Source: Candidatus Pacearchaeota archaeon (GTDB lineage: Archaea > Nanobdellota > Nanobdellia > Pacearchaeales > GW2011-AR1). Taken from it: a stretch of DNA of 64,000 bases. Positions 781 through 23,032 of this stretch are shown here, in pieces (positions within the stretch are counted from its first letter, which is position 1; every line of letters begins with the position of its first letter). Position numbers and translations under genes: made by a program. The notes beneath the pieces are model-generated. The model saw nothing but the letters and a program-made list of their open reading frames with translations. It ran no database searches and was not told the DNA's origin. The DNA lies in NCBI GenBank assembly GCA_038869755.1, contig JAWCQN010000001.1, positions 33,876-97,875 on the forward strand, written 5' to 3'.

Positions 781-805
781 AAAAATGTTTATTAATAAAA
801 TGTAG

Positions 806-1796: not shown

Positions 1797-1874
1797 ATAA
1801 CCATCGGTATAGAGTAGTGACTAAATAATAGTAACAATAAGAAAGTTTAAATATTTAGGTATTTTAAAATTAAT

Positions 1875-2765: not shown

Positions 2766-2778
2766 AAGCCTTCTAAAA

Positions 2779-5201: not shown

Positions 5202-5298
5202 TTAAAGAAGTATTTGCCTAAAAAGAACTTATGGTGATTATAAATAAATTTAAAAACCAGAGAGTAATTAGTTATACATTAAAAGTATAAAGAGGGTA

Positions 5299-5472: not shown

Positions 5473-5599
5473 ATAAAAATAATTTTTTACTATTTTTATC
5501 AATAATCTCTATGGTTTTTATTCATAGAATTTTAACATGTTAATAAGAAAGGCTTTTAAAGGCACTATTTTTAAATAATTACATAAAATAACAATAACA

Positions 5600-6150: not shown

Positions 6151-6152
6151 AA

Positions 6153-6692: not shown

Positions 6693-7193
6693 ATGGAAGA
6701 GAAAACAACACAAGTTCATAAAAAACCTGTATCAAAACAAGAAACAGAATCCCTATTCAGGATTCTCCAAACAGACATACCGGGAGAAAAAAATTTATTC
6801 GCGGGGCTCACAAAGATAAAGGGGGCCTCATTTTCAATTGTAACATCGATATGTAAAAATATAGGGATTGACAAAAAACGCAAAATAAATTCATTAACTC
6901 CTGCTGAAATAGATAAAATATCAAAAGAGATAAAAAACCCAAATGTGCCTTCCTTTATAAAAAACAGGAGGTTTGATTTTGAAAGTGGTGAATCCAGACA
7001 TTTAATTACAACAGAGTTAGATTTAACGAAAGAATTTGATATCAAGAGACTTAAAAAAATAAAGACTTATAAGGGAAATAGACATTCAAGAGGCCTTCCT
7101 GTAAGGGGACAAAGAACAAAAAGCCACTTTAGGAAAAAGGGAAAAAGCAGGGTGGTTGGCGTAAATAAAAAATCAGTAGGCAAAAAAGGATAA
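6693..7193 (+). CDS. rps13: 30S ribosomal protein S13 (uS13)
   Basis: GLTKIKGAS...CKNIGI..., KGNRHSRGLPVRGQRTKSHFRKKG. Confidence 0.9.
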   Translation: MEEKTTQVHKKPVSKQETESLFRILQTDIPGEKNLFAGLTKIKGASFSIVTSICKNIGIDKKRKINSLTPAEIDKISKEIKNPNVPSFIKNRRFDFESGESRHLITTELDLTKEFDIKRLKKIKTYKGNRHSRGLPVRGQRTKSHFRKKGKSRVVGVNKKSVGKKG

Positions 7194-7196
7194 AAA

Positions 7197-7724
7197 ATGA
7201 TAAGAAAACATAAAAAATTCAGAAAACCAAAGAAAGCTTACGACATAAATAGGATAAAGCAGGAAAATATAGTTGTTGAAAAATATGGATTAAAAAATAA
7301 AAGAGAAATTTGGAAAGCAAAGGCAAAATTGGATTCAATAAGAAGAAGAGCAAAAAAATTGATTAATGAAAGTGAGGAAAACCAAGAAAAATACCTCAAC
7401 AAACTAAAAGAGATGGGATTTAAAGTAAAAACAATGATTGATGTATTGGCCCTTACAGAAGAAGACATCCTAAAAAGAAGGTTGCAGACTATTGTCTTCC
7501 AAAAAGGAATTGCTACAACTCCGAGGGGAGCAAGACAATTAATTGTCCATAAACACATAAGAATTAATGAAAAAAAAGTTAATATCCCTTCATATCTTGT
7601 TCCAGTAGAAGAAGAGAATAAAATCAGTAAAGTTTTAAAAAACAAAGCAATGGCAGAAAAAAAAGAGAATAACAGAGAAATTGAAAATGAGAATAATCAA
7701 ATAACTATGGAGGTTTCTGCTTAA
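7197..7724 (+). CDS. rps4: 30S ribosomal protein S4 (uS4)
   Basis: [13 protein letters not shown]..., S4 domain [21 protein letters not shown]. Position after S13. Confidence 0.9.
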
Positions 7725-7725
7725 A

Positions 7726-8115
7726 ATGTCAAAAGAAAAAAAAGAATATACGGGTGTATTACATATATATTCTTCTTTCAATAATACAATTGTCCATGTA
7801 ACAGACCTTTCCGGCAGCACTATATCAAGATATTCAGGTGGCATGGTTACAAAACAAGATAGACTAAAGGCAAATCCAACAACGGGGATGTTTTTAGCAA
7901 AAAAAATTGGAGAAGAAATAAAAGAATTAGGAATAACATCTTTATATATTAAAATGAAAGCGAAAACTGGGGCTCCATCAATAGGGCCGGGTGCAAATAT
8001 GGTAGTAAAAACTCTTTCAAAAGATGGATTTAAAATATTAAGTATTTCAGACCTAACAAAAGTACCAAGAGGAGGACCAAAGAAAAAAGGAGGAAGGAGA
8101 GGAAGGAGAGTTTAA
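7726..8115 (+). CDS. rps11: 30S ribosomal protein S11 (uS11)
   Basis: GVLHIYSSFNNTIVHVTDLSG...AKTGAPSIGPGA...GRRGRRV. Confidence 0.9.
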   Translation: MSKEKKEYTGVLHIYSSFNNTIVHVTDLSGSTISRYSGGMVTKQDRLKANPTTGMFLAKKIGEEIKELGITSLYIKMKAKTGAPSIGPGANMVVKTLSKDGFKILSISDLTKVPRGGPKKKGGRRGRRV

Positions 8116-8201
8116 AAAAATGGCAATAAGGCAACAATTTTCCTAAAAATTTCAAAATAAAAAAATAAACCTTTAAAAAGAAACTTAGATTAAAAATAAA
8201 A

Positions 8202-8954
8202 ATGAAAGAAAAATCAAAAAACAGAATAACACTGGTAACAGATGTTAGTGAGAGTCTTGCAAATGCAATAAGAAGAAGTTCCTCTGAGATCCCTGTTCTC
8301 GCGATTAATGAGATTGAATTTCACAAAAATGACTCGGCTTTATATGATGAAATACTTGCCCATAGAATAGGGCTTATTCCATTAACAGACACAAGGAAAA
8401 TAAATGAAATTGAAAAATGTTCCTGTAATGGTAAAGGATGTAATAAATGCCAGATACAAATAACATTAAAGGCCAAAGGACCAACAACAGTTTACTCAGG
8501 AAATTTAAAAGGAGATGTTGGCATCGTCTATGATAAAATACCTATTGTCATATTGGATAAAGACCAAGAACTAGAATTTATAGGATTTGCCAGATTGGGA
8601 AAATCAATTAAACATGCAAAATTCTCTCCGGGTTTGATTTTTTATAGGCATCTCTCTAAAATAACAATAAATAACCCGGATAAATATGAAGAAATAATTA
8701 ATAAACTTGGAAACCATGTTATTTCGCCACAAAAAGGAAAGGTTAAGACTGGTGATGTTATTTACTCTAACAAAGATGTTGATGAAATAGAGTCTATGTT
8801 CGAAAATGAAAAAGATTTTAGTGTTGAACATGGGGAAAAATTAGTTTTTTTTGTTGAATCATGGGGACAAATTGATCCTAAAGACATAATCATTAATGCA
8901 GTTAAATCTCTTGAAAGCAATCTTAAAGAAGTTTTAAAAACAATTAAAAAATAA
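8202..8954 (+). CDS. rpoD: DNA-directed RNA polymerase subunit D (Rpo3)
   Basis: LANAIRRSSSEIPVLAINEIEFHKNDSALYDEILAHRIGLIPL dimerisation domain. Cys cluster CSCNGKGCNKC. Canonical position after S11. Confidence 0.9.
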   Translation: MKEKSKNRITLVTDVSESLANAIRRSSSEIPVLAINEIEFHKNDSALYDEILAHRIGLIPLTDTRKINEIEKCSCNGKGCNKCQIQITLKAKGPTTVYSGNLKGDVGIVYDKIPIVILDKDQELEFIGFARLGKSIKHAKFSPGLIFYRHLSKITINNPDKYEEIINKLGNHVISPQKGKVKTGDVIYSNKDVDEIESMFENEKDFSVEHGEKLVFFVESWGQIDPKDIIINAVKSLESNLKEVLKTIKK

Positions 8955-8963
8955 TTAAGATAT

Positions 8964-9047
8964 GCGAGAGTGCCGGAGTGGTCAAACGGGTCACGTTAAG
9001 GCCGTGATAGCTTAGTGCTTGCATAGGTTCGAATCCTATCTCTCGCA
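8964..9047 (+). tRNA. tRNA-Leu, type II. The anticodon loop reads UUAAGGC, so the apparent anticodon is AAG, which is unusual
   Basis: Near-identical to the minus-strand tRNA at 519-602. It has a compensatory acceptor-stem change (GCGAGAG/CTCTCGC). Position 34 is A instead of U. Confidence 0.75.
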
Positions 9048-9063
9048 TATCATCACTTTTAAA

Positions 9064-9444
9064 ATGAAAAAAACAAGAATTGAAAAAAAATTAAGAAGAA
9101 AAACAAATCCAAATTTAGTTGAAACAATAATAAAGTCTAAAAAAAGCAAAAATTGGCAAAAAATTTCTCATCTAATTTCAATGCCAAAAAGGAAAATGAT
9201 AGTAGCAAATCTTGACGAAATAGATAAACAATCAATTGATGGTGACTTCCTGGTAGTTCCCGGAAAGGTTCTGGGTGTTGGAGAATTAAATAAAAGGGTC
9301 AAAATAAGTGCGTATTCATTTTCATCTTCAGCAAAAGAAAAGTTAAATAATGCTAAAATTGAGGTTTTAACAATTCAAGAAGCAATACAAAAAAATCCTG
9401 AGGCTAAAAATATAAAAATCATAGTCAAAAAATGGAAAGAATAA
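9064..9444 (+). CDS. rpl18e: 50S ribosomal protein L18e
   Basis: Basic N-terminus MKKTRIEKKLRRKTNPNLVETI, L18e-like body. Start placed at the internal Met because the longer ORF overlaps the tRNA. Confidence 0.8.
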   Translation: MKKTRIEKKLRRKTNPNLVETIIKSKKSKNWQKISHLISMPKRKMIVANLDEIDKQSIDGDFLVVPGKVLGVGELNKRVKISAYSFSSSAKEKLNNAKIEVLTIQEAIQKNPEAKNIKIIVKKWKE

Positions 9445-9836
9445 TCGTTGATGGAAAAAATGCTGTATTGGGAAGGTTGGCAAGTTATGCTGCTAAACAA
9501 TCCTTGCTTGGAAGAGAGGTGATTATTTTAAATTCTGAAGATGTTGTTATCATAGGTAATAAAAAAGATATTTTGAATAAATATCTTTCCCTAATAAAAA
9601 AAGGTGGTAGTAGCTTAAAGGGTCCAAAGATACCTAGGACTCCTGAGAGAATATTAAAAAGAACCATAAGAGGGATGCTCCCTCATAAAAAAGGTAGGGG
9701 AGAAAAATCAATTGATAACATAAAATGTTACAATAATATCCCCGAAGAGTTTAAGGATTCAAAAAAGATAACAGCTGGAAGAGTTAAAACTGGAAAATTT
9801 ATGAAATTGAGCGAGTTAGTTTCTTTAATAAAATAA
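9432..9836 (+). CDS. rpl13: 50S ribosomal protein L13 (uL13)
   Basis: IIVDGKNAVLGRLAS.AAK..L.G..V.I.N.E...I.G. Canonical L18e-L13-S9 order. Confidence 0.9.
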   Translation: MERIIVDGKNAVLGRLASYAAKQSLLGREVIILNSEDVVIIGNKKDILNKYLSLIKKGGSSLKGPKIPRTPERILKRTIRGMLPHKKGRGEKSIDNIKCYNNIPEEFKDSKKITAGRVKTGKFMKLSELVSLIK

Positions 9837-9843
9837 AGATAAA

Positions 9844-10257
9844 ATGGCTATAAAAGAAAAAACATTAATAGTTAGCGGAAAAAGAAAGACAAGTGTAGCA
9901 AAGGCAAGAGTAGTTCCTGGAAATGGAAAGATTTTTGTAAATAATATTCTATATAATAATCTCCCAAGGATACATAAATTATCAATAGAAGAACCGATGA
10001 GAATTGCAAAAAAAACACTTAAAAACTTTGATTTTAATATTGATATAAAAATTTCCGGTGGCGGAAGAGAAAGTCAGATAGAAGCTGCCCGTCTTGCACT
10101 CGCAAAGGCATTGGTTGAAAAATCAAAATCACAACAACTTAGGAAAGCCTTCTTGGAGTATGACAAACATCTTTTAGTAGCAGATGTAAGAAGAAAAGAG
10201 GCCTATAAACCGGGAGATTCAAAGGCTAGGGCTAAAAGACAAACAAGTTATAGATAA
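9844..10257 (+). CDS. rps9: 30S ribosomal protein S9 (uS9)
   Basis: GKRKTSVAKARVVPGNGKI.VN, GGGRESQIEAARLALAKAL, C-terminal ...RQTSYR. Confidence 0.9.
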   Translation: MAIKEKTLIVSGKRKTSVAKARVVPGNGKIFVNNILYNNLPRIHKLSIEEPMRIAKKTLKNFDFNIDIKISGGGRESQIEAARLALAKALVEKSKSQQLRKAFLEYDKHLLVADVRRKEAYKPGDSKARAKRQTSYR

Positions 10258-10261
10258 ATAC

Positions 10262-10690
10262 TTACACACTCTCACGTACAACCACGCCTAACTTTTTTTT
10301 AATAATTTCAAGATCTTTTTTAATATCCCTTATCTCTTTTTCAGCTTTTCGGTTAACAGCATAATCATATTCTGCCCTAAGCCTGTCTCTTTCACTAGCT
10401 CTGTTCTGGGACATCAAAATTATAGGGGCCTGTATAGCTGCCAGGCATGATAAAACTAAATTTAAAAGAATAAAAGGGTAGGGGTCAAATGCCTTACGGC
10501 CATATTGAACGAGAAAATAAGAATTTGTCAAAAACCATAAAAGAATTATGATTAAAAAAATAAAAATAAATGTCCAGCTACCACCAAATGAAGTTATAGC
10601 ATCGGCAGCTTTTTGGCCAAAGGTTAATTTCTTTCTTCCTTCAGCATGTGAAAGCTGTTTTGAATCTAAAAAGTTTCTTTTTATAACCAT
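10262..10690 (-). CDS. DUF1003-family membrane protein
   Basis: TFGQKAAD.ITSFGGSW.FI...FDPYPFILLNLVLS.LAAIQAPIILMSQNR..ERDR matches the DUF1003 pattern. Start set at the internal Met; the ORF is open to 10768. Confidence 0.6.
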   Translation of the reverse strand: MVIKRNFLDSKQLSHAEGRKKLTFGQKAADAITSFGGSWTFIFIFLIIILLWFLTNSYFLVQYGRKAFDPYPFILLNLVLSCLAAIQAPIILMSQNRASERDRLRAEYDYAVNRKAEKEIRDIKKDLEIIKKKLGVVVRESV

Positions 10691-10752
10691 TAAAATAATA
10701 AAAGAAAAATTATATATAAATATTGCCTTATTTTTATTAAGGGTGTAATAAA

Positions 10753-11220
10753 ATGAAAAATAAAACAATAAGGTTTTTTATAGGAATAATATCTATAATA
10801 CTATTCTTACTATTATATTATCTTGCCTCGTTTGAAAATAGTGTTGCAGAAGAAAAAATAGTGACTAAAATAATCGATGGAGACACAATAATAGTTGAAG
10901 GTGGAGAAACCATCAGGTTAATAGGTATTGATTGTGATGAAAAAGGCAGAGAATGTTATGATGAATCAAAGGAAAGAATAGACACATTATTATTAAATAA
11001 AAAAGTCAGGCTTGGAAAGGATGTTGAAAATAAAGATAGATATGGAAGAAGTTTGAGATATGTCTTCTTGGATAATGAAAATATAAACATTAAAATGGTA
11101 AAAGAGGGATATTGCATAGCCAGATTTGAAAGCAAGGATTCTAAATATAAAACAGATATTCAAGAAGCTGAAAAGTATGCGATTACAAATAAAGTGGGAT
11201 GTAAATGGAATCAAAATTAA
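10753..11220 (+). CDS. Membrane-anchored thermonuclease (staphylococcal nuclease/SNase-like)
   Basis: N-terminal TM, DGDTIIV...IRLIGIDCDE...GRSLRYVF, which is the SNase fold signature. Confidence 0.75.
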   Translation: MKNKTIRFFIGIISIILFLLLYYLASFENSVAEEKIVTKIIDGDTIIVEGGETIRLIGIDCDEKGRECYDESKERIDTLLLNKKVRLGKDVENKDRYGRSLRYVFLDNENINIKMVKEGYCIARFESKDSKYKTDIQEAEKYAITNKVGCKWNQN

Positions 11221-11711
11221 ATAAAAAAAGAAATTTAGCAGTAAGTTTAGCAGTGATTTTTTTAATTATATCATCGATTGGATTTGCTATTTTGAGTTTA
11301 ATGATAAAAAGTAATTTTAAAGAAAATAAAAAGTATCCTATAAATTCAAGAGAGATATGTTTTAATAAAAGCCAAATATGTTTTAACACAGAAATAGCTG
11401 ATACAGAAAATGAAAGAAAAATTGGCTTAATGTCAAGAGAGTATCTTGAAGAGAATAAAGGAATGTTGTTTATATTTCATAAAGAAGACAAATATGGTTT
11501 TTGGATGAAGGATGTGTTAATTCCATTGGATATAATATGGATTAATTCTGATCTTGAAGTTGTGCATATAGAAAAAAATGTGTTGCCCTGTAAGTCAGTA
11601 ATTTGCAATACCTATTTCCCTGATAAAAACTCTTTATATGTCCTGGAAATAAATGGAAATTTAACTGAAAAAAATATTATTTCTATTGGAGATAAAATTA
11701 TTTTTAGATAA
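11205..11711 (+). CDS. DUF192 (COG1430) family protein with N-terminal TM
   Basis: GLMSREYL..NKGMLFIF......FWMKDVLIPLDIIWI..D..VV.I is the DUF192 pattern. Confidence 0.6.
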   Translation: MESKLNKKRNLAVSLAVIFLIISSIGFAILSLMIKSNFKENKKYPINSREICFNKSQICFNTEIADTENERKIGLMSREYLEENKGMLFIFHKEDKYGFWMKDVLIPLDIIWINSDLEVVHIEKNVLPCKSVICNTYFPDKNSLYVLEINGNLTEKNIISIGDKIIFR

Positions 11712-11718
11712 ATATTTA

Positions 11719-12552
11719 TCATTTCATTAAACCATCCAATGGGCTTTTAATTTTTTTAAGTTCTTCTTTTGATATATGGGTATATATCTGAGTTGTTGAT
11801 AAATCGCTGTGACCCAATAATTCTTGAATAATTCTTATGTCTGTTCCATTTTCCAAGAGATGGGTTGCAAAACTATGTCTTAATGTATGGCAGGAAACTT
11901 GTTTTTTTATTCCAGCCTTTAACGAGAGAAATTGAACTATTTTCTGTATATTTCTCGAGCTTAATTTACCATTCGGACCTGAAAACAGGTATTCTTGTTT
12001 CATATTTTTTTGATTTTCAACCTGGCTTATCAAATCATTTTTTAGAAAATTCGGGATGTTAAAAATCCTGTCTTTTTTTCCTTTAGCCTGCCTTATAATT
12101 CCTATATTTTCATCAAACTGCAAATCTTCAATTTTCAAATTGATTAACTCAGAGACCCTCATACCAGCAGCGTATAATAAAGACAACATAAGTTTGCTTT
12201 TTTTTGTTTCGCATTTATCCAGTAAAACCTTAACTTCTTCCTTGGTTAAAACAGTTGGTATTTTTTTCTCTCTTTTAGGCCTTTTAATTCCAATAGTCGG
12301 ATCTGTTTTTAAAATATTTAAGTAGGCATATTTTATAGCAGACAAAAAAAGAATTATTGACATTGAAGATTTATTTGATAGTTTTTCTGACATGTATTTT
12401 TTAATATCATCTTCTTTTATTTCTTCCGGTTTTTTGCCTGTAAAATCCAAAAGTCCCATATTTGCACTAAGATAATTCCTAATAGTATATTCTGAATTTT
12501 TAGATATTTTTAATTCAATTTTCAGTTTTTCTAAAAAATCATTTTTATCCAT
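11719..12552 (-). CDS. xerA: Tyrosine recombinase, XerA/XerCD-like integrase
   Basis: Catalytic box HTLRHSFATHLLENGTDIRIIQELLGHSDLSTTQIYTH with the R..H..R..Y tetrad, and an N-terminal SAM-like core-binding domain. Start placed at the internal Met (ORF open to 12591). Confidence 0.85.
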   Translation of the reverse strand: MDKNDFLEKLKIELKISKNSEYTIRNYLSANMGLLDFTGKKPEEIKEDDIKKYMSEKLSNKSSMSIILFLSAIKYAYLNILKTDPTIGIKRPKREKKIPTVLTKEEVKVLLDKCETKKSKLMLSLLYAAGMRVSELINLKIEDLQFDENIGIIRQAKGKKDRIFNIPNFLKNDLISQVENQKNMKQEYLFSGPNGKLSSRNIQKIVQFLSLKAGIKKQVSCHTLRHSFATHLLENGTDIRIIQELLGHSDLSTTQIYTHISKEELKKIKSPLDGLMK

Positions 12553-13114
12553 TGTTATAATTTTTATATAATGCCAAAATATTATCTTCATTAATTATTT
12601 CGACTCTTTTTTTATGCTCCATTATTTCATGAAATGGTTTTGTGTAGAGATCGTGGGCTAAAATGTGGGAAATGTATATAATTTTAAGGCAATAATGCAC
12701 ATTGCCTTTCTTAATAAAATGATCAACTGAAAAAAGTTTAAATATTGTACTGAAACAGTCCATTAAAAATTCTTTGTGCCATGGCCTAATTATTCCATCA
12801 AAATAACATTTTATACCGCCAATTTTTTCCTGACAAGAATCCAAAAAATCTTGTATTAAATATGGGGCAACTAACTGAAGATTAGGCTGCATATTTCTTA
12901 AATTTCTATCAAAAAGAGTTGCAAACCTATAATCATTATCATGGCATTCATGAAACCACCTTAATAATTGATCCATATCCTTCCTATTTTTAAACTTTTG
13001 AATTTTCGAATCTGATACATTAAAAGAAAATGAAGCTACAATAATATCTCCTTTTCTATCTCCAGCGTGATTTAAGTCGTCAAAACCAATAATTAAGGTT
13101 TTATCCTCTAACAT
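12545..13114 (-). CDS. Hypothetical protein with a possible RNase H-like N-terminus
   Basis: The N-terminus LIIGFDDLNHAGDRKGDIIVA loosely resembles the RNase HII GIDEAGRGPV motif. Otherwise no recognisable family. Confidence 0.3.
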   Translation of the reverse strand: MLEDKTLIIGFDDLNHAGDRKGDIIVASFSFNVSDSKIQKFKNRKDMDQLLRWFHECHDNDYRFATLFDRNLRNMQPNLQLVAPYLIQDFLDSCQEKIGGIKCYFDGIIRPWHKEFLMDCFSTIFKLFSVDHFIKKGNVHYCLKIIYISHILAHDLYTKPFHEIMEHKKRVEIINEDNILALYKNYNNG

Positions 13115-13199
13115 CTAACACCTCTTTTATATTGTGCGAACATATTATTTAAAACTATGGTGTGTAAGGTTTTGTAAAAGATATAATTAGAAATTTTAA

Positions 13200-13652
13200 T
13201 TAGCTTATAATAATTGGCATTTCTTTTACACTCGACAAAATCAATTGGGTTTGAGTTCTTTCTACAAATTCATATGCTTGAACTGTCTTTAAGTAATTAT
13301 CCAGTTCTCTTCTGTTTTTGAAACGGGCAATAACCATAATATCAAATTCTCCTGTCAAATCATAAATTGCAGTAACATTTGGTGAATTAAAAAGTTTTTT
13401 TCCCACTACTACTTCTTGGCCCTGAGATACGCGAATATTAATTATAACATGGACCTCATATCCGAGTAAGTCGTAATCTACCAGAGTAGTATAAGCTTTC
13501 AAAATACCATTATTTTTAAACTCTTTAAGTTTATTAGATATGGTAGCAACAGAAACCTTAGATTCTTTAGCTAACTCTCTATAGGATTTCCTGGAATCTT
13601 TTATTAAAGTATTGAGTATCCTTTTCTCTGATTCGTTTATTGGCTTTTTCAT
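13200..13652 (-). CDS. Lrp/AsnC-family transcriptional regulator
   Basis: N-terminal HTH (ILNTLIKDSRKSYRELAKESKVSVATISNKLKEF..NGIL), C-terminal RAM domain. Confidence 0.85.
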   Translation of the reverse strand: MKKPINESEKRILNTLIKDSRKSYRELAKESKVSVATISNKLKEFKNNGILKAYTTLVDYDLLGYEVHVIINIRVSQGQEVVVGKKLFNSPNVTAIYDLTGEFDIMVIARFKNRRELDNYLKTVQAYEFVERTQTQLILSSVKEMPIIIS

Positions 13653-13781
13653 TGTTACTTGTTAAATTTATTAAAATATTAAAAAGGTATAATAAACAAA
13701 TATATAAATATTTGCTTTTTTTTAAACGTTTGTTTAAAAAAAAATGATAAATTATATAAAGAATAAAAATATTTTTTAGTT

Positions 13782-14066
13782 ATGAGAATTGAAGATGGGG
13801 TTATAACAAGCTCAGATATTCCAAGGCCAAGATCGTTACTAGATATTGCAATTGAGCTACATGGATTGGAAGATATTGGAAGCGAGTTATGGATGAGATA
13901 TGACTATGAAAAAGCAAATTTAAATAGCGAAACAAAAACGTCTGTAGATACCCTTGCTTATTATTTAATAAACGGCTTATATGAAAGTGCGAGACAATTG
14001 GTAGATATAAATAAATATCCTTACAATTTAAAAAGAAGAATATATGCTTTAAAGCCATTAAAATAA
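13782..14066 (+). CDS. Hypothetical protein
   Basis: 94-aa ORF immediately followed by the next ORF. No recognisable motif. Confidence 0.35.
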   Translation: MRIEDGVITSSDIPRPRSLLDIAIELHGLEDIGSELWMRYDYEKANLNSETKTSVDTLAYYLINGLYESARQLVDINKYPYNLKRRIYALKPLK

Positions 14067-14363
14067 ATGAAAAACCATATCATCAAAAAGCCGGAATTAG
14101 GAAGGTACCTCTTAAGTGCTGATGTAAATCAGGGAGATATTGTTTTTATTGAAAATACAGATAAGAGATATCTTGCTATCTATGTGGAAAAAAATAAAAA
14201 AGTTCTTTTAGCAAGCAGAAATGGGGTTTTGACTAATGGAATTAGCCAGATAGAGATAATTGCCTATGAAAAATCAAATATGCCTCCATCAAAAATTTAC
14301 CTTAAAATAGGTGATCCTGCATATGAGTTTCAGGATTTAAATCTTAAAAATGTTTGCCTTTAA
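14067..14363 (+). CDS. Hypothetical protein
   Basis: 98-aa ORF abutting 13782-14066 as a two-gene cassette. No recognisable motif. Confidence 0.35.
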   Translation: MKNHIIKKPELGRYLLSADVNQGDIVFIENTDKRYLAIYVEKNKKVLLASRNGVLTNGISQIEIIAYEKSNMPPSKIYLKIGDPAYEFQDLNLKNVCL

Positions 14364-14415
14364 AATTGCCTCTAATTTTTGGGAATATTTAAATATGTTT
14401 TTTTCGTTATAGAAT

Positions 14416-14838
14416 ATGATTGTCCAAGTAAATGTTAACTATTTAACTATTTTGATAGCAAGTGTTATTTCTTTTTTAATAGGAGTGTTATGGTATTCTC
14501 CATTATTATTTGGAAAATGGTGGGCTAAACTTACAGATACTGGCAAGAAACCAGTAATTGAAATGATAAAAAAGAAAGCCATAGTTGGTTGTTTAGTTGG
14601 GTTTTTAGCACAATTAGTAATGACATATGTTTTAGCACATTTTATTATATACGCAGATGCCATTACTTTAATAGATGGTGCCATAATTGGGTTCTGGACA
14701 TGGTTTGGTTTTGTAGCCACAATATTTTTAGGAATGGCATTATGGGAAAACAAACCGGCACAGCTATATTTGTTAAACTCTGGTTATTGGTTGTTATCGT
14801 TAATAGTTCAAGGAATGATCCTCTCTGTGTGGCAATAA
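14416..14838 (+). CDS. Hypothetical polytopic membrane protein
   Basis: 4 predicted TM helices. 140 aa. Confidence 0.45.
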   Translation: MIVQVNVNYLTILIASVISFLIGVLWYSPLLFGKWWAKLTDTGKKPVIEMIKKKAIVGCLVGFLAQLVMTYVLAHFIIYADAITLIDGAIIGFWTWFGFVATIFLGMALWENKPAQLYLLNSGYWLLSLIVQGMILSVWQ

Positions 14839-14986
14839 TCCATGCAAAAGCTTAAATACAGTGTTTTTCTGTAAAATATACCTGTTAAGGAAAGGAAATT
14901 AATCTAATTCTTACAGCAAAATAAACAGAATTGAAGCATGAAAAAATCAAGTAAAAATTCAATTATCGGGTATAAGGGAGGAAATC

Positions 14987-15184
14987 ATGGAAAGAAGATT
15001 TAGTGGTCCTAGAAAACACCCTGGTGGATTCAATAGAGGATTTAGACAGGGGTTCAGACCAAGGGAAATGCATAAAGCAGTTTGTGCAGATTGTAAACAG
15101 GAATGTGAAGTTCCATTCAAACCAAATGAAGGCAAACCAGTTTATTGTAGAGATTGCTTTCAGAAAAGAAAAGAAACAGCATAA
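14987..15184 (+). CDS. Small Arg/Gly-rich zinc-ribbon protein (CxxC-x17-CxxC)
   Basis: RGG-like N-terminus (GGFNRGFRQGFRP), CADCKQEC...CRDCF. Strong RBS AGGGAGGA upstream. Confidence 0.6.
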   Translation: MERRFSGPRKHPGGFNRGFRQGFRPREMHKAVCADCKQECEVPFKPNEGKPVYCRDCFQKRKETA

Positions 15185-15487
15185 ATAATTTTTTATTCTA
15201 AAGGTTTAATTGTGTTTTATTTTGTCTTTTTCAGATATTAACAACCCAATAAAAAAAAGAAGTAACAAGAAACTTGACGCCCAAATTATTATTAAGGTCA
15301 AGAATAAAAATAAATTTACAAGAAAATTTGAATTTATAACAATTAAAAATAGAAAAATCGAAAAAAATAAGATAATGGCCAAAAAAATATTCTTTGAAAT
15401 TTCCATTTTATATTATTGAAGAAATATTTATAATAATTTATGTCTTAAAAAAGATAGGTTTATTAAAACATAAACAAAAATAATATT

Positions 15488-15919
15488 ATGGCAATTGAAT
15501 TGATATTGATTGGAATTATTGTTTTCTTAGTAATAATGGTTTGGTTTATGTATAAAATTGGTATTCAAAAAGGAAGAAATGAGAAAGAAATTGAGTGGCA
15601 ATCAAACTTAATCAAATTAAGAAAAGATATAGCAGATAAACAAAGAGTTAACATAAAGGGCAGAGTGGCTGAAATATTTGCTCCTTTTTTAGAAGGGTTC
15701 CCGTACAAAGCGTCAGAGAGTAAATTTATAGGAGATCCAATAGATTACCTGGTCTTTGAAGGACTTGAGGAAAGGAATATAAGAGGAGTACATCTTGTTG
15801 AAATAAAAACAGACAAATCGCAGTTAAATAAAGTCCAAAGGCAAATAAAAGAAATTATAGAGAATAATGCTAATGATAAAATTAGCTTCAAGACATTTGA
15901 ATTTAAAACAACAATTTAA
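15488..15919 (+). CDS. Membrane-anchored putative PD-(D/E)xK-fold nuclease-like protein
   Basis: N-terminal TM, then a GDPIDYLVFEG...VHLVEIKT arrangement (D...E.K) compatible with a restriction-endonuclease-like fold. This is an inference. Confidence 0.35.
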   Translation: MAIELILIGIIVFLVIMVWFMYKIGIQKGRNEKEIEWQSNLIKLRKDIADKQRVNIKGRVAEIFAPFLEGFPYKASESKFIGDPIDYLVFEGLEERNIRGVHLVEIKTDKSQLNKVQRQIKEIIENNANDKISFKTFEFKTTI

Positions 15920-15935
15920 ATAAATTAATATTAAA

Positions 15936-16223
15936 ATGAAAATAAACAAGCTTTGGTTAAAATATGGGATCTTCTCTTTAATTATTGGAGTAATTTTACT
16001 GATTGTATTACTTTTAATTGCCCATTTTTGTCAGATAATAACAGGCAATAACCCTTACTGCAAGAATTTTATATTTCCTCTCCATCTGTTTGTTGAATTA
16101 TCAAAAATTCCTTCTGAAAAAATAGCATTTGGAATAGGAATTGTAATTATCTTGTTATTTTTTATGTTTATTGGAATAGTCATCGGATTAAAAAAGGGTG
16201 ATTTAAATTCACAAAGAGCATAA
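15936..16223 (+). CDS. Hypothetical membrane protein
   Basis: Two or three TM helices. 95 aa. Confidence 0.4.
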   Translation: MKINKLWLKYGIFSLIIGVILLIVLLLIAHFCQIITGNNPYCKNFIFPLHLFVELSKIPSEKIAFGIGIVIILLFFMFIGIVIGLKKGDLNSQRA

Positions 16224-16317
16224 GATAGTAACCATTATCCAGTATGACAGTATATAAATATAATTATTATATTAGTTATATTTTTCTCTATATATTATAT
16301 TTAAATATAAAAGACTG

Positions 16318-16542
16318 GTGAAAATATATAAAATGAAGGTGATGAAAATAAGCCAAAATCACGGCAAGATAACTAGAGAGTTGATCTCAAACTTTGGTCA
16401 GAATCTTTATAAGTATGATGAAGTAAAAACAGTCCTAATCAAAGTGAAATTTAAAGATGGGTGTGAAATTGGTTTTAAAAGAGATGAGGAAGAAGACGAA
16501 TTAGAAGAATTCTTTAAAGAGAAAAAAAGTTCTGGTAATTAA
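16318..16542 (+). CDS. Hypothetical small protein
   Basis: 74-aa ORF with an acidic C-terminus. Confidence 0.3.
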   Translation: MKIYKMKVMKISQNHGKITRELISNFGQNLYKYDEVKTVLIKVKFKDGCEIGFKRDEEEDELEEFFKEKKSSGN

Positions 16543-16574
16543 TAATTTAATTTTATATTTATTTCAAATTTTTC

Positions 16575-17252
16575 CTAAGAACATTCACCCTCTATGTAAT
16601 ATAAAACTCTTTCATCAGAACAGGCAACACATGAATTGGAGAATGTTTCTGGAACAGGATTACATGGTACTCTAATACACTCTATCTGCCTGTATCCACA
16701 AACTGGTTTGTAAATCTGAATACAATGTGGCATGTTTCTTTGTCCAGGGAGGCAGTTTATTTTATCTTTATTTGGAATGTTATTTGAAATAAGTGAGATT
16801 ATCAATTCAACTTGGGATGTATTTGACGGAACAATATCAAATCTTTTTCCTAAATTATCCAAAAGAGTTTTCATTCCATTAAAAGTAATTGATTCGTCAG
16901 CAGAGGTATTTGATATGGTATTATCCATTATAAATTCTAATTTATTATTTTGAAATTTATAAATTCCTCCATAAGTTTCAACACCATCAAAATCCTTTTC
17001 CTCCAACCCAGTGTAAAACTCCATAAGCATTACTGGAGAAAAACCCTCTATTGGCCTTCCTTTCTCTCTAATATACTTGTTTTGTATAGAATTAAAAAAA
17101 TAGCTGTAAATTTCTTCTGAAGTTCTGCCTGAAGAAGTTTGAGTTTTTTTAATTATAAGGTATGAGTTTATTACTAAAAGAATGAAAATTAAAAGCAGAA
17201 TGAAAACAATCACTACAATAATTGTTAAAAATTTAGTATTACTTTTAGCCAT
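16575..17252 (-). CDS. Exported Cys-rich protein (N-terminal TM anchor)
   Basis: N-terminal hydrophobic helix. C-terminal region with 10 Cys (CLPGQRNMPHCIQIYKPVCGYRQIECIRVPCNPVPETFSNSCVACS...). Confidence 0.5.
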   Translation of the reverse strand: MAKSNTKFLTIIVVIVFILLLIFILLVINSYLIIKKTQTSSGRTSEEIYSYFFNSIQNKYIREKGRPIEGFSPVMLMEFYTGLEEKDFDGVETYGGIYKFQNNKLEFIMDNTISNTSADESITFNGMKTLLDNLGKRFDIVPSNTSQVELIISLISNNIPNKDKINCLPGQRNMPHCIQIYKPVCGYRQIECIRVPCNPVPETFSNSCVACSDERVLYYIEGECS

Positions 17253-18549
17253 AACTTCTCTAATAACCTAGTTTATTTAAATTTAATCAAAAATCCAAAA
17301 ACAATTGGAATCTTTTTACTTTATTAAGAAAAGATTAAACATCATAGATTTTAAATAACTTGATTAAGATCTAAATACGAATAAAACTCTCTTTTAGTTT
17401 TAATTGGATTATTAATAGTGAGGATGGTTAAATTTTTTATATCAAATAATTTATTTTCTAATTCAGGCGTTAGTACTAATTATTCTCTTGACATTATAAA
17501 AATGAAAAAAAATAAAAAACTTTCATCTTGATGGGGAGAATTTTAAATTTATCATGGATGGTGTAGAAAACTGATATCAGGGTTAAAAAAAGAGGTAAAG
17601 TAGAAATTGTTTTTGAGTCTTATTGTAGTGTTGGAAAGTATGGGGGAGAGAAAATGGTGTGAAGAGTAAATTAATAGTTGAGGAGTTTTCTAAGAGATGT
17701 TTATTTAATTTTACAACTTAACCACTATCTTCTTCAAATTCATTATAATTAAGCACTACCAATATAAGTTAAATATTTTAATTATTAATTAAATATTTTA
17801 GACATGTTTTTTTAAGGAAGGATATTTTTGAAAAAGGAGTATTTTTCCTTCATTTTTAGAGTGCTGACAATATATCTTGTGCGTAATTTTAAGTGATTTT
17901 TAGCCTATTTTTAAGTTTTTTATGAATTTGTGCGAACTTTTTAGCTTATTTTTAGTGGTACTAAAAGTTTTAAGTATTAATTAAATATTTTAAGTATATT
18001 TTTTAAGCCAATTATATCATCTTCAGTCTTGATTTAAACTATCTATGTATTAAACTATCTACATATCTTGAGAATCTTGAGGCCATTCTTTTATTTCTTA
18101 TAACTATTTCATATAATTAAGACCATAACTATATTGTTTGAATTAGTTCGGATTATAACCTTAAAAAGAATAGCTATTACTCTAAGTATAATCCAAAAGG
18201 TTAGAAAGTGATGAAAAATTGTTAAAATAGAACATATTTGAATTTATGGTTTTTCATACAATCAAAAAAATACAAAAAAATATTTAGAATAACACCGAAA
18301 ATAATAAAAATAGGCTATGCTAAAACTTTTAAGCAAAGATTAAAATTTTTAATAAGCTTAGTTTAAATCTTGATTTAGAGAAGTATAAGAAATATAGTCA
18401 TTATTAGTATTATATATTAAGCCCCGAATATGTTGATTAAATCCAATTAGACTAAGTAAACTAAGTAAAAAATAAGAAAAAACCTAAAAAGTGTTTTATT
18501 CAAAATTTTAGCAAGAAACCGGTATTTTCCAGCTATTCAAAATAAAATT

Positions 18550-18717
18550 TTATTTTATTAGCTTGTAATTCCTTATAAGCTTGGCTATACCTATGACTAA
18601 AACTGCAATTGCTATCAGCCACGGATTATATATTGCCAACTGAGGCAACACATTGGCAGCTTCAAGCAAGAGCAATAGCCCTATAATAGTTACAAGCCAT
18701 GCAGTTAGTTTTGCCAT
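18550..18717 (-). CDS. Possible small hydrophobic protein (55 aa) inside the ORF-free region
   Basis: MAKLTAWLVTIIGLLLLLEAANVLPQLAIYNPWLIAIAVLVIGIAKLIRNYKLIK. Two TM helices. Not in the ORF track (<60 aa). Confidence 0.3.
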   Translation of the reverse strand: MAKLTAWLVTIIGLLLLLEAANVLPQLAIYNPWLIAIAVLVIGIAKLIRNYKLIK

Positions 18718-19169
18718 TTTCTCTCCTTTATATTTTCCATTTTTTTATGTGTTTTTTTGTGTGTTTTGAACTAATAAAACATGGCCAGCCTAATAATTCC
18801 TAAAAATCTTTACAAAAGAAATTTAGAGTAAAACCGATCGTGTAAATTAGGATATCCAACCTAATTTCAAACAATTTTTAGCTCTTTTTTAGCTTAATAA
18901 TCTTAATATTTTAGAGATTTTAAAGTTTTCTAATTTTGATTGTACGAACTTAAGAGGAATTAATAAACCTGAAGAAACAGACTAATTTTTGTCGAGTTAA
19001 TTTTTTAAAAATGAATTTTTTTAAATAGTTAATTAAAAAAATAACAAAAAATATTTGTTTAAGCGATTTAAAAAAACAGAAAAACCTTATTTTTTGTTAA
19101 ATGTTCTGTGTTAACCTTTACTATTATTTGACTATTTTTGAACATCCTTAGTTTTTATTTTTATCGACG

Positions 19170-19230
19170 ATAAACAGCTGTTTAAGGCTGTTTAAACAGC
19201 TGTTTAAACAAAAAATGATGGTGTTTAAAC
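19170..19230. promoter_or_regulatory. Cluster of palindromic iteron-like motifs (AAACAGCTGTTTAA / GTTTAAAC), about 120 bp upstream of the wHTH gene
   Basis: GATAAACAGCTGTTTAAGGCTGTTTAAACAGCTGTTTAAAC ... GTGTTTAAAC. The same core recurs inside the downstream ORF at about 19611-19625. Confidence 0.45.
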
Positions 19231-19348
19231 TATATAAATTAGTCTTTTTATGGTATTTTTAGTAGATTTTTATATAGTTAATTTATATGATTTATTTAGT
19301 TTTTAGAAAGGTTTAAATAGTATTCTTCGTCTATAAATATTAAACAAT

Positions 19349-19981
19349 TTGTATTTTAATAAAATGTTTGAATGGTTTTTTGGAAAAAAGGATAAAAAAG
19401 AAGCTGATGAAATAAAAAAAGAAGTCAGAAATTCTTTTTCACTTGTAAAAAAAGATATAAATAAAATAACTACGTGGATTAATCACCTAAATGAATATGA
19501 TAAATCCTTAAGTAATGAAGTAAATAGTGTTAAAGAAGAAATATCGAATATAAATGACCAGATAGAACAAATAAAAGATTTAATCTCTATGATATCTGAC
19601 GGGTTTAATAAACAGCTGTTTAAAACATCAACGCCTGTTTATCGTAAACAAACAGGTGTTGATGTTGTTCAAACAGGTGTTCAAACAGGTGTTCAAACAG
19701 CTAATTTTTACGGATTTTCTAACTTGTCTGCAACAGAAAGAGCAATAATATGGATATTAATCAACAATGATTTAAAATTAAGTTATGATGATTTAGCAGC
19801 AATGTTAGGAAAAACAAGGTCAACAATAAGAGGGCAAATAAATAGTATAAAACAAAAAAGTGTGGGATTAATAGAGGAGTATATTGAAAAAAACGGAAAA
19901 AAGAGGGTTTACATACCTGAAGAAATAAAACAAAAAATATTGAAAAAGACGAAAGTGAGAGTTAAAAAAGATAAAGAGTAG
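19349..19981 (+). CDS. Coiled-coil + C-terminal winged-helix DNA-binding protein with an in-frame tandem repeat (QTGV x3)
   Basis: N-terminal heptad-rich region. 12-nt tandem repeat CAAACAGGTGTT x3 at 19648-19701 (QTGVDVVQTGVQTGVQT). C-terminal HTH-like SATERAIIWILINNDLKLSYDDLAAMLGKTRSTIRGQINSIK. Confidence 0.55.
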   Translation: MYFNKMFEWFFGKKDKKEADEIKKEVRNSFSLVKKDINKITTWINHLNEYDKSLSNEVNSVKEEISNINDQIEQIKDLISMISDGFNKQLFKTSTPVYRKQTGVDVVQTGVQTGVQTANFYGFSNLSATERAIIWILINNDLKLSYDDLAAMLGKTRSTIRGQINSIKQKSVGLIEEYIEKNGKKRVYIPEEIKQKILKKTKVRVKKDKE

Positions 19982-20325
19982 TTAGTAAAAATATTTTTTT
20001 AAGTTGTTATATTAAAAGTAGAGGGTAAAAAAAATACATAAAAAACAGAAAGTGATAGTTAGAATAGATAAAAATTAACAGAATTAAGGAAAAAAGAAAT
20101 GGAAAAAATCAGTGTAAAAAGGAAAGAGAGATAAAAAACCATAGAAAAAAATAATAAATCTAGGAAAGTGAGAAAAAACAAAAAAATGATAAGGAGGCAA
20201 TGGTGTGTAAGGGAATTAGATTTAAAATTGAAAAAAAATAAGTAGTGGATAAAGATATTGAAAAAAGACTAAAAAAGAGATTGAGTAGGAAAAAATAAAA
20301 AAATTAATTCGGTTTACCGATTTTC
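19982..20325 (+). other. Polypurine (A/G about 85%), C-depleted ORF-free spacer between convergent genes
   Basis: GAAAAAA/GGAAAG/GAGAGA-type words throughout. Almost no C on the + strand. Stops in all frames. Confidence 0.5.
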
Positions 20326-20988
20326 TTATTTAGACTCTCTTAGTAGTAGAATTGTATCTAAAGAAGCTAATTTTTTAAAATCGTCAGGGATATGGAGGAT
20401 GATATGTTTATTATTCTCTTTAGTTTTTATCAAAGGGGCCCCTTTATTTAAGATCCTTTGAACATAATCTCTAATGGAACTTTGGGAAAGAGATAATTTA
20501 GTAGCAAGGAAGTGATAATCTATAGTCGTTTGGTTGTTGTCATATTGGTAAATCGTTGAAAAAACAAGCATTTCCTGATTGGTTAAACTTTTGATTTTAT
20601 CTTTAAGTTCTTGTCTTAAACCATCTATTTGGTTTATTATTAGTGTTGATAAATTTCCTTTTTCACTTAATTTGTCTGTCTGTCTGATTGTCTGTCTGTC
20701 TGTCGAAACCCCTTCATTTCCTATGGAATTTTTTATATTTTGCCTTTTTAAGGCTTGAAATGGTAAAATATCTGTCGAAGTGTCTGTCGAAGTAACTTTA
20801 TGTGTCGAATTTGTCTGTCGAAGTGTTTGAACTTCAATATTAAGTGTCGAATTTAATTTAGTTAGATTAAGAATAGATGTTTGTATCTCTTCTAATTCTT
20901 TTTTTATACTATTTATTTCTATTTTTAAATCATATATATCTTGTTTTACCTTGTTAAATGCTTCTTTTATTTGATCCATTTTTTTCAA
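20326..20988 (-). CDS. Paralogous coiled-coil + winged-helix protein with in-frame STD/TDxS short repeats
   Basis: Same architecture as 19349-19981, convergent to it. DNA repeats TGTCTGTCGAAG/TGTCTGTCTG at 20683-20710 and 20771-20860 encode STDTSTD...STDRQTIRQTD. C-terminal wHTH-like LVFSTIYQYDNNQTTIDYHFLATKLSLSQSSIRDYVQRILNKG. Confidence 0.55.
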   Translation of the reverse strand: MKKMDQIKEAFNKVKQDIYDLKIEINSIKKELEEIQTSILNLTKLNSTLNIEVQTLRQTNSTHKVTSTDTSTDILPFQALKRQNIKNSIGNEGVSTDRQTIRQTDKLSEKGNLSTLIINQIDGLRQELKDKIKSLTNQEMLVFSTIYQYDNNQTTIDYHFLATKLSLSQSSIRDYVQRILNKGAPLIKTKENNKHIILHIPDDFKKLASLDTILLLRESK

Positions 20989-21021
20989 TAAAAATGTTTT
21001 AATATTTAAGGTTTTTTATTT

Positions 21022-21288
21022 TTATAGTTTTTTATAAGCGTCATATGCTTTATTAGATAATCTCCACCTTACCCTCCGAGTGTAATTTACTCCTTTTGGA
21101 TTTTTTATCACTTTAACTAATAACTCTTTTTTCTCAAGTTTTTCTAATAAAGATTTAATAAATTCCTCATCCCTAGCAACTTCCTGAGAAATATTTGCAG
21201 TAAATAAAGGTTTTGGATAAGAAGAATATAATAAAGATAAGATATGTTCTGAAATTTTGTCTTTCTTTTTATCTGATATTTTAGGCAT
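21022..21288 (-). CDS. Small winged-helix-like putative DNA-binding protein
   Basis: 88 aa. ILSLLYSSYPKPLFTANISQEVARDEEFIKSLLEKLEKKELLVKV resembles a wH recognition helix plus wing. Basic C-terminus. Confidence 0.4.
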   Translation of the reverse strand: MPKISDKKKDKISEHILSLLYSSYPKPLFTANISQEVARDEEFIKSLLEKLEKKELLVKVIKNPKGVNYTRRVRWRLSNKAYDAYKKL

Positions 21289-21322
21289 TAATAATCTATA
21301 AAAAAAAGATATTTAAGGTTTT

Positions 21323-21766
21323 TTAATTTAGTGAATCTTTAGATTTTCCTATTTTTGGTTTATCTACAAATTTTGGAGTTGGAATATGAAAAGGGATATT
21401 TAGTGTTTCTTCAAGCTCCATGGCTGTTAAATTACATTTATTGAAAATAATATTAAGTAAAGGAATTCTTAACTCATCTTCAACTTTTTTTTCCTTCCAA
21501 CTCTTTAAAATCTTTTTAAACAAATCATTTTCTGATTTTTCCATTAGTAGAGCAATATTTCCAGAAAAAAAAAGCTCGGCAAAATCAGGCATATATTTAA
21601 TTTTAAGTTCATAATCTATATTTAGAATATCCTGATCTTTAAATAAATCGTTAATCCTAGATTGGATATCTTTTATTTGAATATCTGTATTAATATTTAA
21701 TTCATTCGTAGGTTCTTTATTTTTTTCAATAGATATTTTCTTAAAATTAAATCCAATTAATCTCAT
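21323..21766 (-). CDS. Hypothetical protein
   Basis: 147-aa ORF with no recognisable motif. Confidence 0.35.
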   Translation of the reverse strand: MRLIGFNFKKISIEKNKEPTNELNINTDIQIKDIQSRINDLFKDQDILNIDYELKIKYMPDFAELFFSGNIALLMEKSENDLFKKILKSWKEKKVEDELRIPLLNIIFNKCNLTAMELEETLNIPFHIPTPKFVDKPKIGKSKDSLN

Positions 21767-21780
21767 TTTTAATATAAAAG

Positions 21781-22041
21781 CTACCTTAAATCTTCTTCAG
21801 AAATGACAACAAAATCGCCAATAGCCATAATTGAGTTATGAGGTACTAATAATTCTCCCTGACTAGATCTTTCTAAGTTTAAATTCTGAGAATAAGGAGT
21901 AGCATTTTTAATGACTAATTGAATTAATTCACCTGTTCTAGTCTCAAAAGTAAGGTCCTGAACAATACCAAGTCTTTTACCCTCTTTAGTCACAACCATC
22001 TTACCAACAAGATCTCTAAGTGGTCTTTTATCACTTACCAT
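21781..22041 (-). CDS. PRC-barrel domain protein
   Basis: L.GK.VVTKEGKRLGIVQDL.FETRTGELIQLVI ... IMAIGDFVVISEE is the typical archaeal stand-alone PRC barrel. Confidence 0.7.
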   Translation of the reverse strand: MVSDKRPLRDLVGKMVVTKEGKRLGIVQDLTFETRTGELIQLVIKNATPYSQNLNLERSSQGELLVPHNSIMAIGDFVVISEEDLR

Positions 22042-22439
22042 ATTTTGTAGAAATTAAGTTAATATTTAAACTTTTCTGTAGTCACCAAGTATTTTTAGTG
22101 TTTTTTGTTTTATTTTTTCTTAAATTTAATAATTTTAATACTTTTATTTGAAATTTATAAGTATTTAATCAATTATAAAAAACTAAAAAGATGAATAAGT
22201 ATAGTTAATTTTAAATAAAAGATATTATATTCAAAAAATATATTTAATAGTGGTTAAGAATTGAAATTAATATACATAATAGTGGTCAGGAAAAAGTTAT
22301 AACTATTTTTTTATGTAGTTCTTTTTAGGCAATATATTAGAAATAATAAAAAAATAGGTTTTAAAGAGTATTTGATTTTGTTTATTTTTTCTCTTTATTT
22401 TACCCTACCCCTTTATTTCATATAGAAATATTTAAAAAA

Positions 22440-22600
22440 GAAATGTTATTTTTTTGTTTTTAAAATTTATTTATAAATATTTATATATTATATAATACAT
22501 ATTGTATTATATTTATTCTATTAAATATATTATATTAATTTTATTTTAGCATACATACTAAATTACATATGATATATTATATATAATAGATAATCTAACT
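22440..22600. other. Near-pure A/T stretch, candidate DNA-unwinding element
   Basis: About 160 bp with only a handful of G/C. It lies within the 990-bp ORF-free region upstream of orc1/cdc6. Confidence 0.45.
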
Positions 22601-22747
22601 TATTTATTTTAATATATCTTATATCAAAATCTTATTTATTCTATATAACCTGCTGTTTTAATATATCTTATATCAAAATCTTATTTATTCTATATAACCT
22701 GCTGTTTTAATATATCTTATATCAAAATCTTATTTATTCTATATAAC
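22601..22747. repeat. Three perfect tandem 49-bp direct repeats (AATATATCTTATATCAAAATCTTATTTATTCTATATAACCTGCTGTTTT)
   Basis: Read directly; copies start at about 22601, 22650 and 22699. No spacers, so not CRISPR. About 290 bp upstream of orc1/cdc6. Confidence 0.85.
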
Positions 22748-23032
22748 CTGCTGTTGTATACTTAAAATATACTTAGTATGTAGACTTAGCTTCAATATTA
22801 ACCTTTAACTTTTAGCATTTTTTTTCCAAGAGAAATCATGGTGTGACTCTTTTTAATAAACTAAAGATTATATAAACTCTTATTAAATTGTACTAAAATT
22901 TATGGTAATACTTTTATTCGATAAGTGAACGTCTTATTATTTTTAATCAAAAGTTTAATTAATGTCTCCATATGAAATGAAGGTACTATTTTTTTCTATA
23001 ATAAAATTTATACAAAACTTTATAAAATATAT

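Follow-up and report, generated by a model that had tools for sequence, protein, structure and literature searches.

The 64,000-nucleotide stretch analyzed here (hereafter the window; positions 33,876 to 97,875 of contig JAWCQN010000001.1 from a Candidatus Pacearchaeota archaeon, with a GC content of ~30%) contains, between a ribosomal cluster and the replication origin, a region of short genes and long spacers that begins with the tyrosine recombinase gene xerA (positions 11719-22041). An earlier note, made from the sequence alone, had read this region as an island of ~10 kb, possibly the degraded remnant of an integrated plasmid or virus. Comparison with related genomes indicates instead that it is probably native chromosome, composed of a conserved xerA, an interval of ~6 kb in which small genes turn over, and a conserved origin-proximal module. 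The features of the region, which include open reading frames (ORFs) for transmembrane (TM) and winged helix-turn-helix (wHTH) proteins, are the following:

11719-12552, minus strand: xerA, chromosomal archaeal Xer tyrosine recombinase of 277 amino acids (NCBIfam recomb_XerA_Arch), left conserved anchor
12545-13114, minus strand: orf189, putative RNase H-fold protein, overlapping the xerA start by 8 nt
13200-13652, minus strand: Lrp/AsnC regulator (Pfam HTH_24 and AsnC_trans_reg)
13782-14363, plus strand: orf94 and orf98, abutting, strain-specific ORFan pair with no family match
14416-14838, plus strand: DUF1761 membrane protein, strain-specific cargo (Pfam PF08570, E=4e-27)
14987-15184, plus strand: CxxC-x17-CxxC treble-clef zinc-finger protein (PF23477, E=1e-19; TIGR04272)
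15488-15919, plus strand: PF10107 "Endonuc_Holl" Hjc-related endonuclease domain with an N-terminal TM helix (Pfam E=3e-22)
15936-16542, plus strand: orf95 (membrane) and orf74, small genes with similarity to relatives
16575-17252, minus strand: TM-anchored protein with a Cys-rich C-terminus, similar to proteins of relatives, no Pfam match
17253-18549, no strand: AT-rich non-coding DNA of 1.3 kb, unique to this genome, no ORF of at least 50 amino acids
18550-18717, minus strand: orf55, membrane protein of 55 amino acids with homologs in relatives, where conservation resumes
18718-19348, no strand: long upstream region of wHTH210, conserved by 28-mer comparison, with a palindrome and direct-repeat array (19170-19210)
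19349-22041, mixed strands: wHTH210 (plus), wHTH220, wHTH88, orf147 and a PRC-barrel gene (all minus), right anchor, syntenic upstream of orc1-polD

We compared the region with 37 genome loci fetched via Orc1, 18 informative metagenome loci fetched via XerA and six fetched via homologs of orf189, searching every window protein against all of them by tblastn, with ~20 kb covered per relative (labels such as L081 denote the loci of individual relatives). The closest relatives of Orc1, PolD and the neighboring genes are 63-78% identical and occur in metagenome-assembled genomes (MAGs) labelled Pacearchaeota, Woesearchaeota or Nanoarchaeota. Nine loci share the order ribosomal cluster, (DUF1003), SNase, (DUF192), xerA, interval, wHTH210, and those that reach further continue through wHTH220, wHTH88, orf147 and PRC, in an order that is inverted in two loci, to the origin, orc1 and polD. 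Rather than a block missing elsewhere, the comparison returned a conserved xerA and a conserved stretch from 18.55 to 22.04 kb. A variable segment of accessory type is real, but it is narrower than proposed (12553 to ~18549), and each relative has some version of it.

From xerA to wHTH210 the interval measures 1.9, 2.3, 2.4, 2.6, 2.7, 3.8, 4.2, 6.8 (the window) and 9.4 kb, and there is no empty site among these relatives, none of which is closer to the window than 75% XerA identity. The cargo of the relatives' intervals consists of ordinary cell genes (RRM, DHH/OB of the RecJ-like type, FKBP, hemerythrin, flavodoxin and DUF5654), for which a search elsewhere in the window gave no match. The two closest relatives share part of their content with the window: in L081, orf189 (48% identical), the Hjc-like nuclease (66%), orf74 (61%), the Cys-rich domain (56%) and orf55 (54%) lie in the same order and orientation, and L084 carries Lrp (66%), one further gene, orf189 (63%) and xerA (75%) in succession. 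Because an interval exists in every relative and the closest ones retain a collinear skeleton, this segment is a gene-turnover zone rather than one inserted element. We infer that 12553 to ~18549 is a zone of low constraint, in which small genes would be gained, lost and eroded one at a time while the anchors on both sides stay fixed; some half of the interval genes were probably inherited vertically within the sub-clade, the rest being strain-specific ORFans or single acquired genes.

The left anchor bears out the XerA-like tyrosine recombinase placed at the start of the region by the earlier note. Its product matches Pfam Phage_integrase (E=4e-43) and scores 243 bits against the NCBIfam equivalog model recomb_XerA_Arch (NF040815; cut-off 220), which the XerA of five relatives also passes. 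The true start is probably M14 of a 290-residue ORF, as the recorded protein has 277 residues. Among solved structures the best match is XerA of Pyrococcus abyssi (4A8E; E=3.8e-45), with which residues 4-268 are collinear; in an alignment to 4A8E and 5HXY the RHSFATH, LGHS and QIYT motifs coincide with identical motifs of the P. abyssi protein. Nine loci (L005, L006, L007, L008, L010, L012, L046, L048 and L081) have the gene at the same place, with the ribosomal cluster on one side and the origin module on the other. Judged by sequence and gene order, XerA is the cell's own, orthologous and syntenic chromosomal Xer recombinase, and the alternative that had been raised alongside the island, of a dimer-resolution recombinase kept near the origin, finds support in both the equivalog match and the retained position. 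XerA presumably resolves chromosome dimers at a dif site.

The right anchor is similarly conserved. The module that ends with the PRC-barrel gene is syntenic upstream of orc1-polD in ~15 relatives (L003-L008, L010, L012, L013, L023, L025-L027, L033 and L048), and the order orf55, wHTH210, wHTH220, wHTH88, orf147, PRC is kept down to 63% Orc1 identity. The wHTH pair, the small wHTH gene and the PRC-barrel gene were located correctly from the start; wHTH210 and wHTH220 are coiled-coil/HTH proteins, and wHTH88 is a small wHTH whose match is weak and below the Pfam cut-off. At least seven relatives (L004, L008, L012, L013, L023, L026 and L081) have an orf55 homolog at the same position. The whole of 18550-22041 probably represents an origin-proximal module of DNA-binding proteins with long AT-rich regulatory spacers. 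Two relatives that are more distant (L027, 1054-8561; L033, 3178-8575) have 5.4-7.5 kb inserted into the module between wHTH88 and orf147, and this inserted stretch consists of cell genes (Lhr helicase, metallophosphoesterase, PRPP synthetase, TrmB, PIN and nucleotidyltransferase) with no element.

If the region were instead a degraded integrated plasmid or virus of ~10 kb, the recombinase would be its integrase and the small ORFs and the spacer its decayed cargo. Integrated archaeal plasmids and proviruses resemble the region in placing a tyrosine recombinase beside small, poorly conserved genes, and the window offers such a recombinase at one end (with matches to phage integrase PHROGs as well), numerous ORFs that are short or orphan, low coding density, and a nuclease gene with several HTH regulators. 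Such elements also have attachment (att) repeats, often derived from a tRNA gene, a tRNA or intragenic target, genes for their own replication or structure, and relatives with an empty site, whereas the window has none of these and its recombinase is orthologous and syntenic. A repeat search of 11-23.5 kb and a border-versus-border k-mer comparison, bearing on the att sites suggested for 11.7 and 22 kb, returned only trivial AT-rich 14-mers of the kind expected by chance; there is no tRNA within 11-23 kb, no match of at least 11 nt to either tRNA-Leu, and no tRNA fragment. Pfam, PHROGs, NCBIfam and PADLOC revealed no replication, capsid, packaging or conjugation gene, the sole PHROG match being XerA itself, and PADLOC found no defence system, only HTH-level matches of Lrp. 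Moreover, three scans for relatives of orf189, the nuclease and the Cys-rich protein on viral contigs found none.

Composition, for which k-mer and GC profiles had been proposed as a check, likewise gives no sign of foreign origin. The tetranucleotide distance of 12-17 kb is typical (z -0.6 to -0.85), and the variable genes do not depart from the range of 58 core genes in codon adaptation index (CAI), GC or third-position GC (GC3). The deviant stretch is 17-25 kb (z 2-3.6), which is the conserved, spacer-rich part including the origin. The same strain was also assembled independently from SRR27730039, where two contigs correspond to window positions 10059-19695 and 19670-22636 with one mismatch; this assembly is contiguous over 10059-19695, and its breaks fall at internal repeats and at none of the proposed island borders. 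Given these results, the XerA equivalog kept in place in nine relatives, the right third conserved as core in ~15, and the collinear skeleton in L081 and L084, an integrated element is an extremely unlikely explanation, and the native-chromosome reading is preferred.

What had made the region look like an island is in part real. Coding density does drop, to 0.71 compared with 0.91 in positions 1-11718 and 0.92 in 23033-64000, and the median gene length is 120 amino acids compared with 162 and 219 in the flanks. A sharp loss of strand coherence, claimed alongside, was not seen, since the 0.24 strand switches per gene compare with 0.21 and 0.36 in the flanks. Two gaps account for almost all of the density drop, 1297 bp at 17253-18549 and 631 bp at 18718-19348; the gene blocks that flank them are 0.84-0.86 coding, and all three intergenic gaps above 400 bp in the window fall within 17.2-23 kb. 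Both the low density and the odd k-mer profile are attributable to the long AT-rich regulatory spacers of the origin-proximal module together with the origin spacer.

The supposed ORF-free stretch of 2.1 kb proved to be non-coding at 17253-18549 and 18718-19348, but it is interrupted by the real, conserved gene orf55. Within 17253-18549 we found no Rfam match (gathering threshold or E<=1), no ARAGORN prediction, no structure signal by sliding-window folding (z > -2), no pseudogene remnant above chance (six-frame translation against all loci, and 206 proteins from relatives' intervals against the stretch), and no DNA or protein similarity to relatives' intervals. A promoter and terminator scan of the ORF-free stretch stayed at chance level, and the only signal from RNA and folding searches of the gap region was the palindrome array discussed below. 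At the corresponding position L081 has ~13 small genes. The 1.3-kb stretch may be a remnant at a site where relatives carry other small genes, and we interpret it as filler of the turnover zone that has either decayed or never been coding. At 18321-18348 it contains the second-best conserved non-coding word of the interval, the 28-mer TAAAACTTTTAAGCAAAGATTAAAATTT, which is matched at 20-23 of 28 positions in eight relatives and has multiple copies in L003 and L005 by blastn.

The genes between xerA and this stretch are of mixed background. Lrp, the TM-anchored nuclease and the Cys-rich protein lie where they had been placed; the "many orphan ORFs" reported with them include one strict ORFan, orf98, which matches only itself, and one near-ORFan, orf94, with a single homolog (42% identical) among 1.84 billion representatives, but known families include the DUF1761 protein, the zinc finger and the PF10107 nuclease. 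Lrp has a 66% identical homolog at the corresponding position, two genes upstream of xerA, in L084/L085. In the divergent promoter region of Lrp and orf94 (13701-13758) there is an imperfect palindrome with 27-nt arms, 78% complementary, and a 4-nt loop, which is possibly an Lrp operator. The nuclease has its homolog (66% identical) adjoining orf189-xerA in L081-L083, and orf95 has a weak match in the interval of L005. The C-terminal 59 residues of the Cys-rich protein are 46-56% identical to proteins encoded in the L081 and L004 intervals and close to xerA in L045. In L004, L045 and L081 this C-terminal domain stands as a unit of its own within proteins of otherwise different architecture, and by eye (…YKPVCG…TFSNSCVAC…) it resembles a Kazal-type inhibitor, with no Pfam model matching.

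Several observations weigh against a purely native history of the interval. The XerA of the closest relatives is 72-75% identical to that of the window, so that the comparison is not at strain level and breakpoints are inexact; the metagenome scan with XerA found no relative above 75% identity except one fragment of 85 residues at 84% (L057), and exact matches came from the same strain in SRR27730039 only. Gene absences in relatives refer to the ~20 kb examined per genome. The compared relatives have no positional counterpart of orf94, orf98, the DUF1761 protein, the zinc finger, a dubious orf66 or the 1.3-kb spacer, so a small recent insertion may have occurred inside the interval. Furthermore, XerA at the same locus in L008 (1231-2031) and L012 (3699-4499) is 45% identical to that of the window and 72% identical between the two, while the Orc1 of these loci is 73-75% identical to the window's; the more distant L048 (Orc1 64%) has XerA of the window type at 63%, and both types pass the XerA model. 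This divergence suggests in-situ replacement or accelerated evolution of xerA, and it implies that recombinational exchange does occur at the locus.

These points leave room, tentatively and with clearly less probability, for a refinement that is compatible with the native-region explanation, in which a sub-block of ~13.78-15.4 kb (orf94, orf98, the DUF1761 gene and the zinc-finger gene, with or without the 1.3-kb spacer) was recently acquired horizontally from beyond the lineage and inserted by illegitimate recombination. Besides the lack of positional counterparts and the ORFan or near-ORFan character of orf98 and orf94, which have nothing in Pfam, PHROG, NCBIfam or PADLOC, it is the DUF1761 protein that speaks for acquisition, having no counterpart in any related locus and nearest homologs that are 45-50% identical, the one gene context read being of bacterial type (def-fmt, MreB, HPF and VanY). 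The zinc finger does have a homolog in L040, on the opposite side of xerA. The sub-block has no repeats at its borders, and its codon usage (that of orf94 and orf98 included) and GC are native, so any transfer would be old or from a donor of similar composition. In L084 the gene at the position equivalent to orf98 is faintly similar (30% over 37 residues, E=0.27), hinting at fast divergence over import.

The spacer upstream of wHTH210 differs from the 1.3-kb stretch in being conserved, with a corresponding region of 395-734 bp in relatives. Its array at 19170-19210 is the best-conserved non-coding 28-mer of the interval, matched at 22-27 of 28 positions in eight relatives. The 12-bp palindrome AAACAGCTGTTT has three exact copies, upstream of and inside wHTH210 (19170-19210 and 19610-19621), against 0.37 expected by chance with at most one mismatch, and its placement is equivalent in relatives (about -120 to -200, +261 and +301), where it is adjoined by GNTGTTTA repeats phased at 11 bp (L004-L013, L023, L026 and L081). 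It also precedes xerA in two relatives, by 24 bp in L006 and by 160 bp in L048. AAACAGCTGTTT is probably the operator of one origin-proximal wHTH protein. On the other side of the module, the 991-bp spacer upstream of orc1 contains three tandem 49-bp repeats that are 98-100% identical (22607-22758), probably origin recognition elements, and most relatives conserve the adjacent ~22400-22540. It is within these repeats that the independent Logan assembly breaks.

The array bears on a further alternative, that the interval is a capture platform driven by the recombinase, either an integron-like array or insertions at a dif-like site in the manner of integrative mobile elements exploiting Xer (IMEX), with XerA, perhaps together with orf189, inserting small units. 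A dif site would be unique in the chromosome, conserved among relatives and built of inverted 11-bp arms around a 6-bp spacer. At 19175-19202 the 64 kb of the window has one perfect 11-6-11 inverted repeat, CAGCTGTTTAA-GGCTGT-TTAAACAGCTG, whose geometry is dif-like. Its left arm is not conserved in relatives, and a 28-mer conservation scan for dif led to the operator-like array of wHTH210, the 11-6-11 form being specific to the window. Since what relatives keep is one palindrome with the phased GNTGTTTA repeats, and since the palindrome recurs inside wHTH210, the site fits a transcription-factor operator better than dif.

The superficially integron-like geometry is also suggestive, in that the minus strand carries the recombinase and the plus strand seven small ORFs unrelated to one another (13782-16542), as are the different interval content of every relative and the discordant XerA type of L008 and L012. 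DPANN archaea do have integrons (Ghaly et al., 2022; PMC9668308), and the window resembles those archaeal integrons in having a recombinase divergent from co-oriented small ORFs, many of no known function, in a DPANN genome. It differs from them in the recombinase, the recombination sites and the array. The integron-integrase model TIGR02249 scores 210 bits, below its cut-off of 265, and matches in two stretches, as it does in five relatives; in relatives with both ends reported (about 1-181 and 237-315), profile positions ~182-236 are unmatched, a gap that presumably corresponds to the IntI-specific domain, which in integron integrases lies around patch III. Only the C-terminal part of XerA aligns to IntI4 (2A3V). 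In 12553-17252 there are no attC core pairs (RYYYAAC...GTTRRRY, R''...R', 50-160 nt apart) where 0.9 would be expected, and three of the "cassette" spacers, at 0, 16 and 32 bp, are too short for attC; an integron would have two or more attC sites within 4 kb of each other between its cassettes. Orf189 and Lrp intervene between xerA and the array, and the genes common with L081 are collinear, unlike those of a shuffling array. Capture of this kind is therefore very unlikely, and we hold the same serious doubt about an Xer-dependent, attC-less site next to xerA at which XerA and orf189 would insert and excise small units near the origin. If true, it would constitute an integron-like or IMEX-like platform in DPANN archaea and would account both for an interval that is different in each Pacearchaeota genome and for the swapped XerA type of some lineages.

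As a native chromosomal recombinase, XerA invites comparison with the archaeal Xer/dif system, for which we took XerA of P. abyssi as reference (Cortez et al., 2010, PMC2958812; structure 4A8E, PMC3646895). Similarly to that system, there is a single XerA-type recombinase here, which aligns end to end with P. abyssi XerA and is chromosomal rather than element-borne. PMC2958812 describes the position of xerA relative to oriC as highly variable in Thermococcales, whereas xerA of the window and its relatives is fixed ~10 kb from orc1 across a clade. A second difference is the translational coupling of xerA to the putative RNase H-fold gene orf189 in this sub-clade; a keyword search of the XerA papers PMC2958812 and PMC3646895 found no such partner. 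Proteins of the RNase H-like superfamily have a beta-alpha core, with acidic residues where strands 1 and 4 end and in the helix after them. Orf189 is likely a co-translated partner of xerA in this sub-clade, where the two genes would be co-transcribed and their products may be functionally linked.

The interval itself resembles plasticity zones, the variable regions between conserved anchor genes in prokaryotic chromosomes. It has in common with them two fixed anchors, an always-present interval varying in size and content, native composition, and a mix of vertically inherited and strain-specific small genes. It differs in being small (2-9 kb), in adjoining the origin and xerA, and in that no mobile-element genes were seen in it or among the larger of the relatives' interval genes, which were scanned.

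The main value of these results is a correction, as a recombinase, short orphan ORFs and low coding density together mimic an island when only the sequence is considered. In this genome the pattern would arise from a housekeeping xerA, the normal small-gene turnover of DPANN archaea and origin-proximal regulatory spacers. Two by-products are of interest in their own right, namely the putative RNase H-fold protein coupled to xerA and the conserved array of palindrome and direct repeats that surrounds a coiled-coil wHTH gene by the origin. For the annotation of Pacearchaeota MAGs, the comparison provides a landmark order that runs from the ribosomal cluster through xerA, the variable interval and the wHTH module to the origin and orc1-polD.

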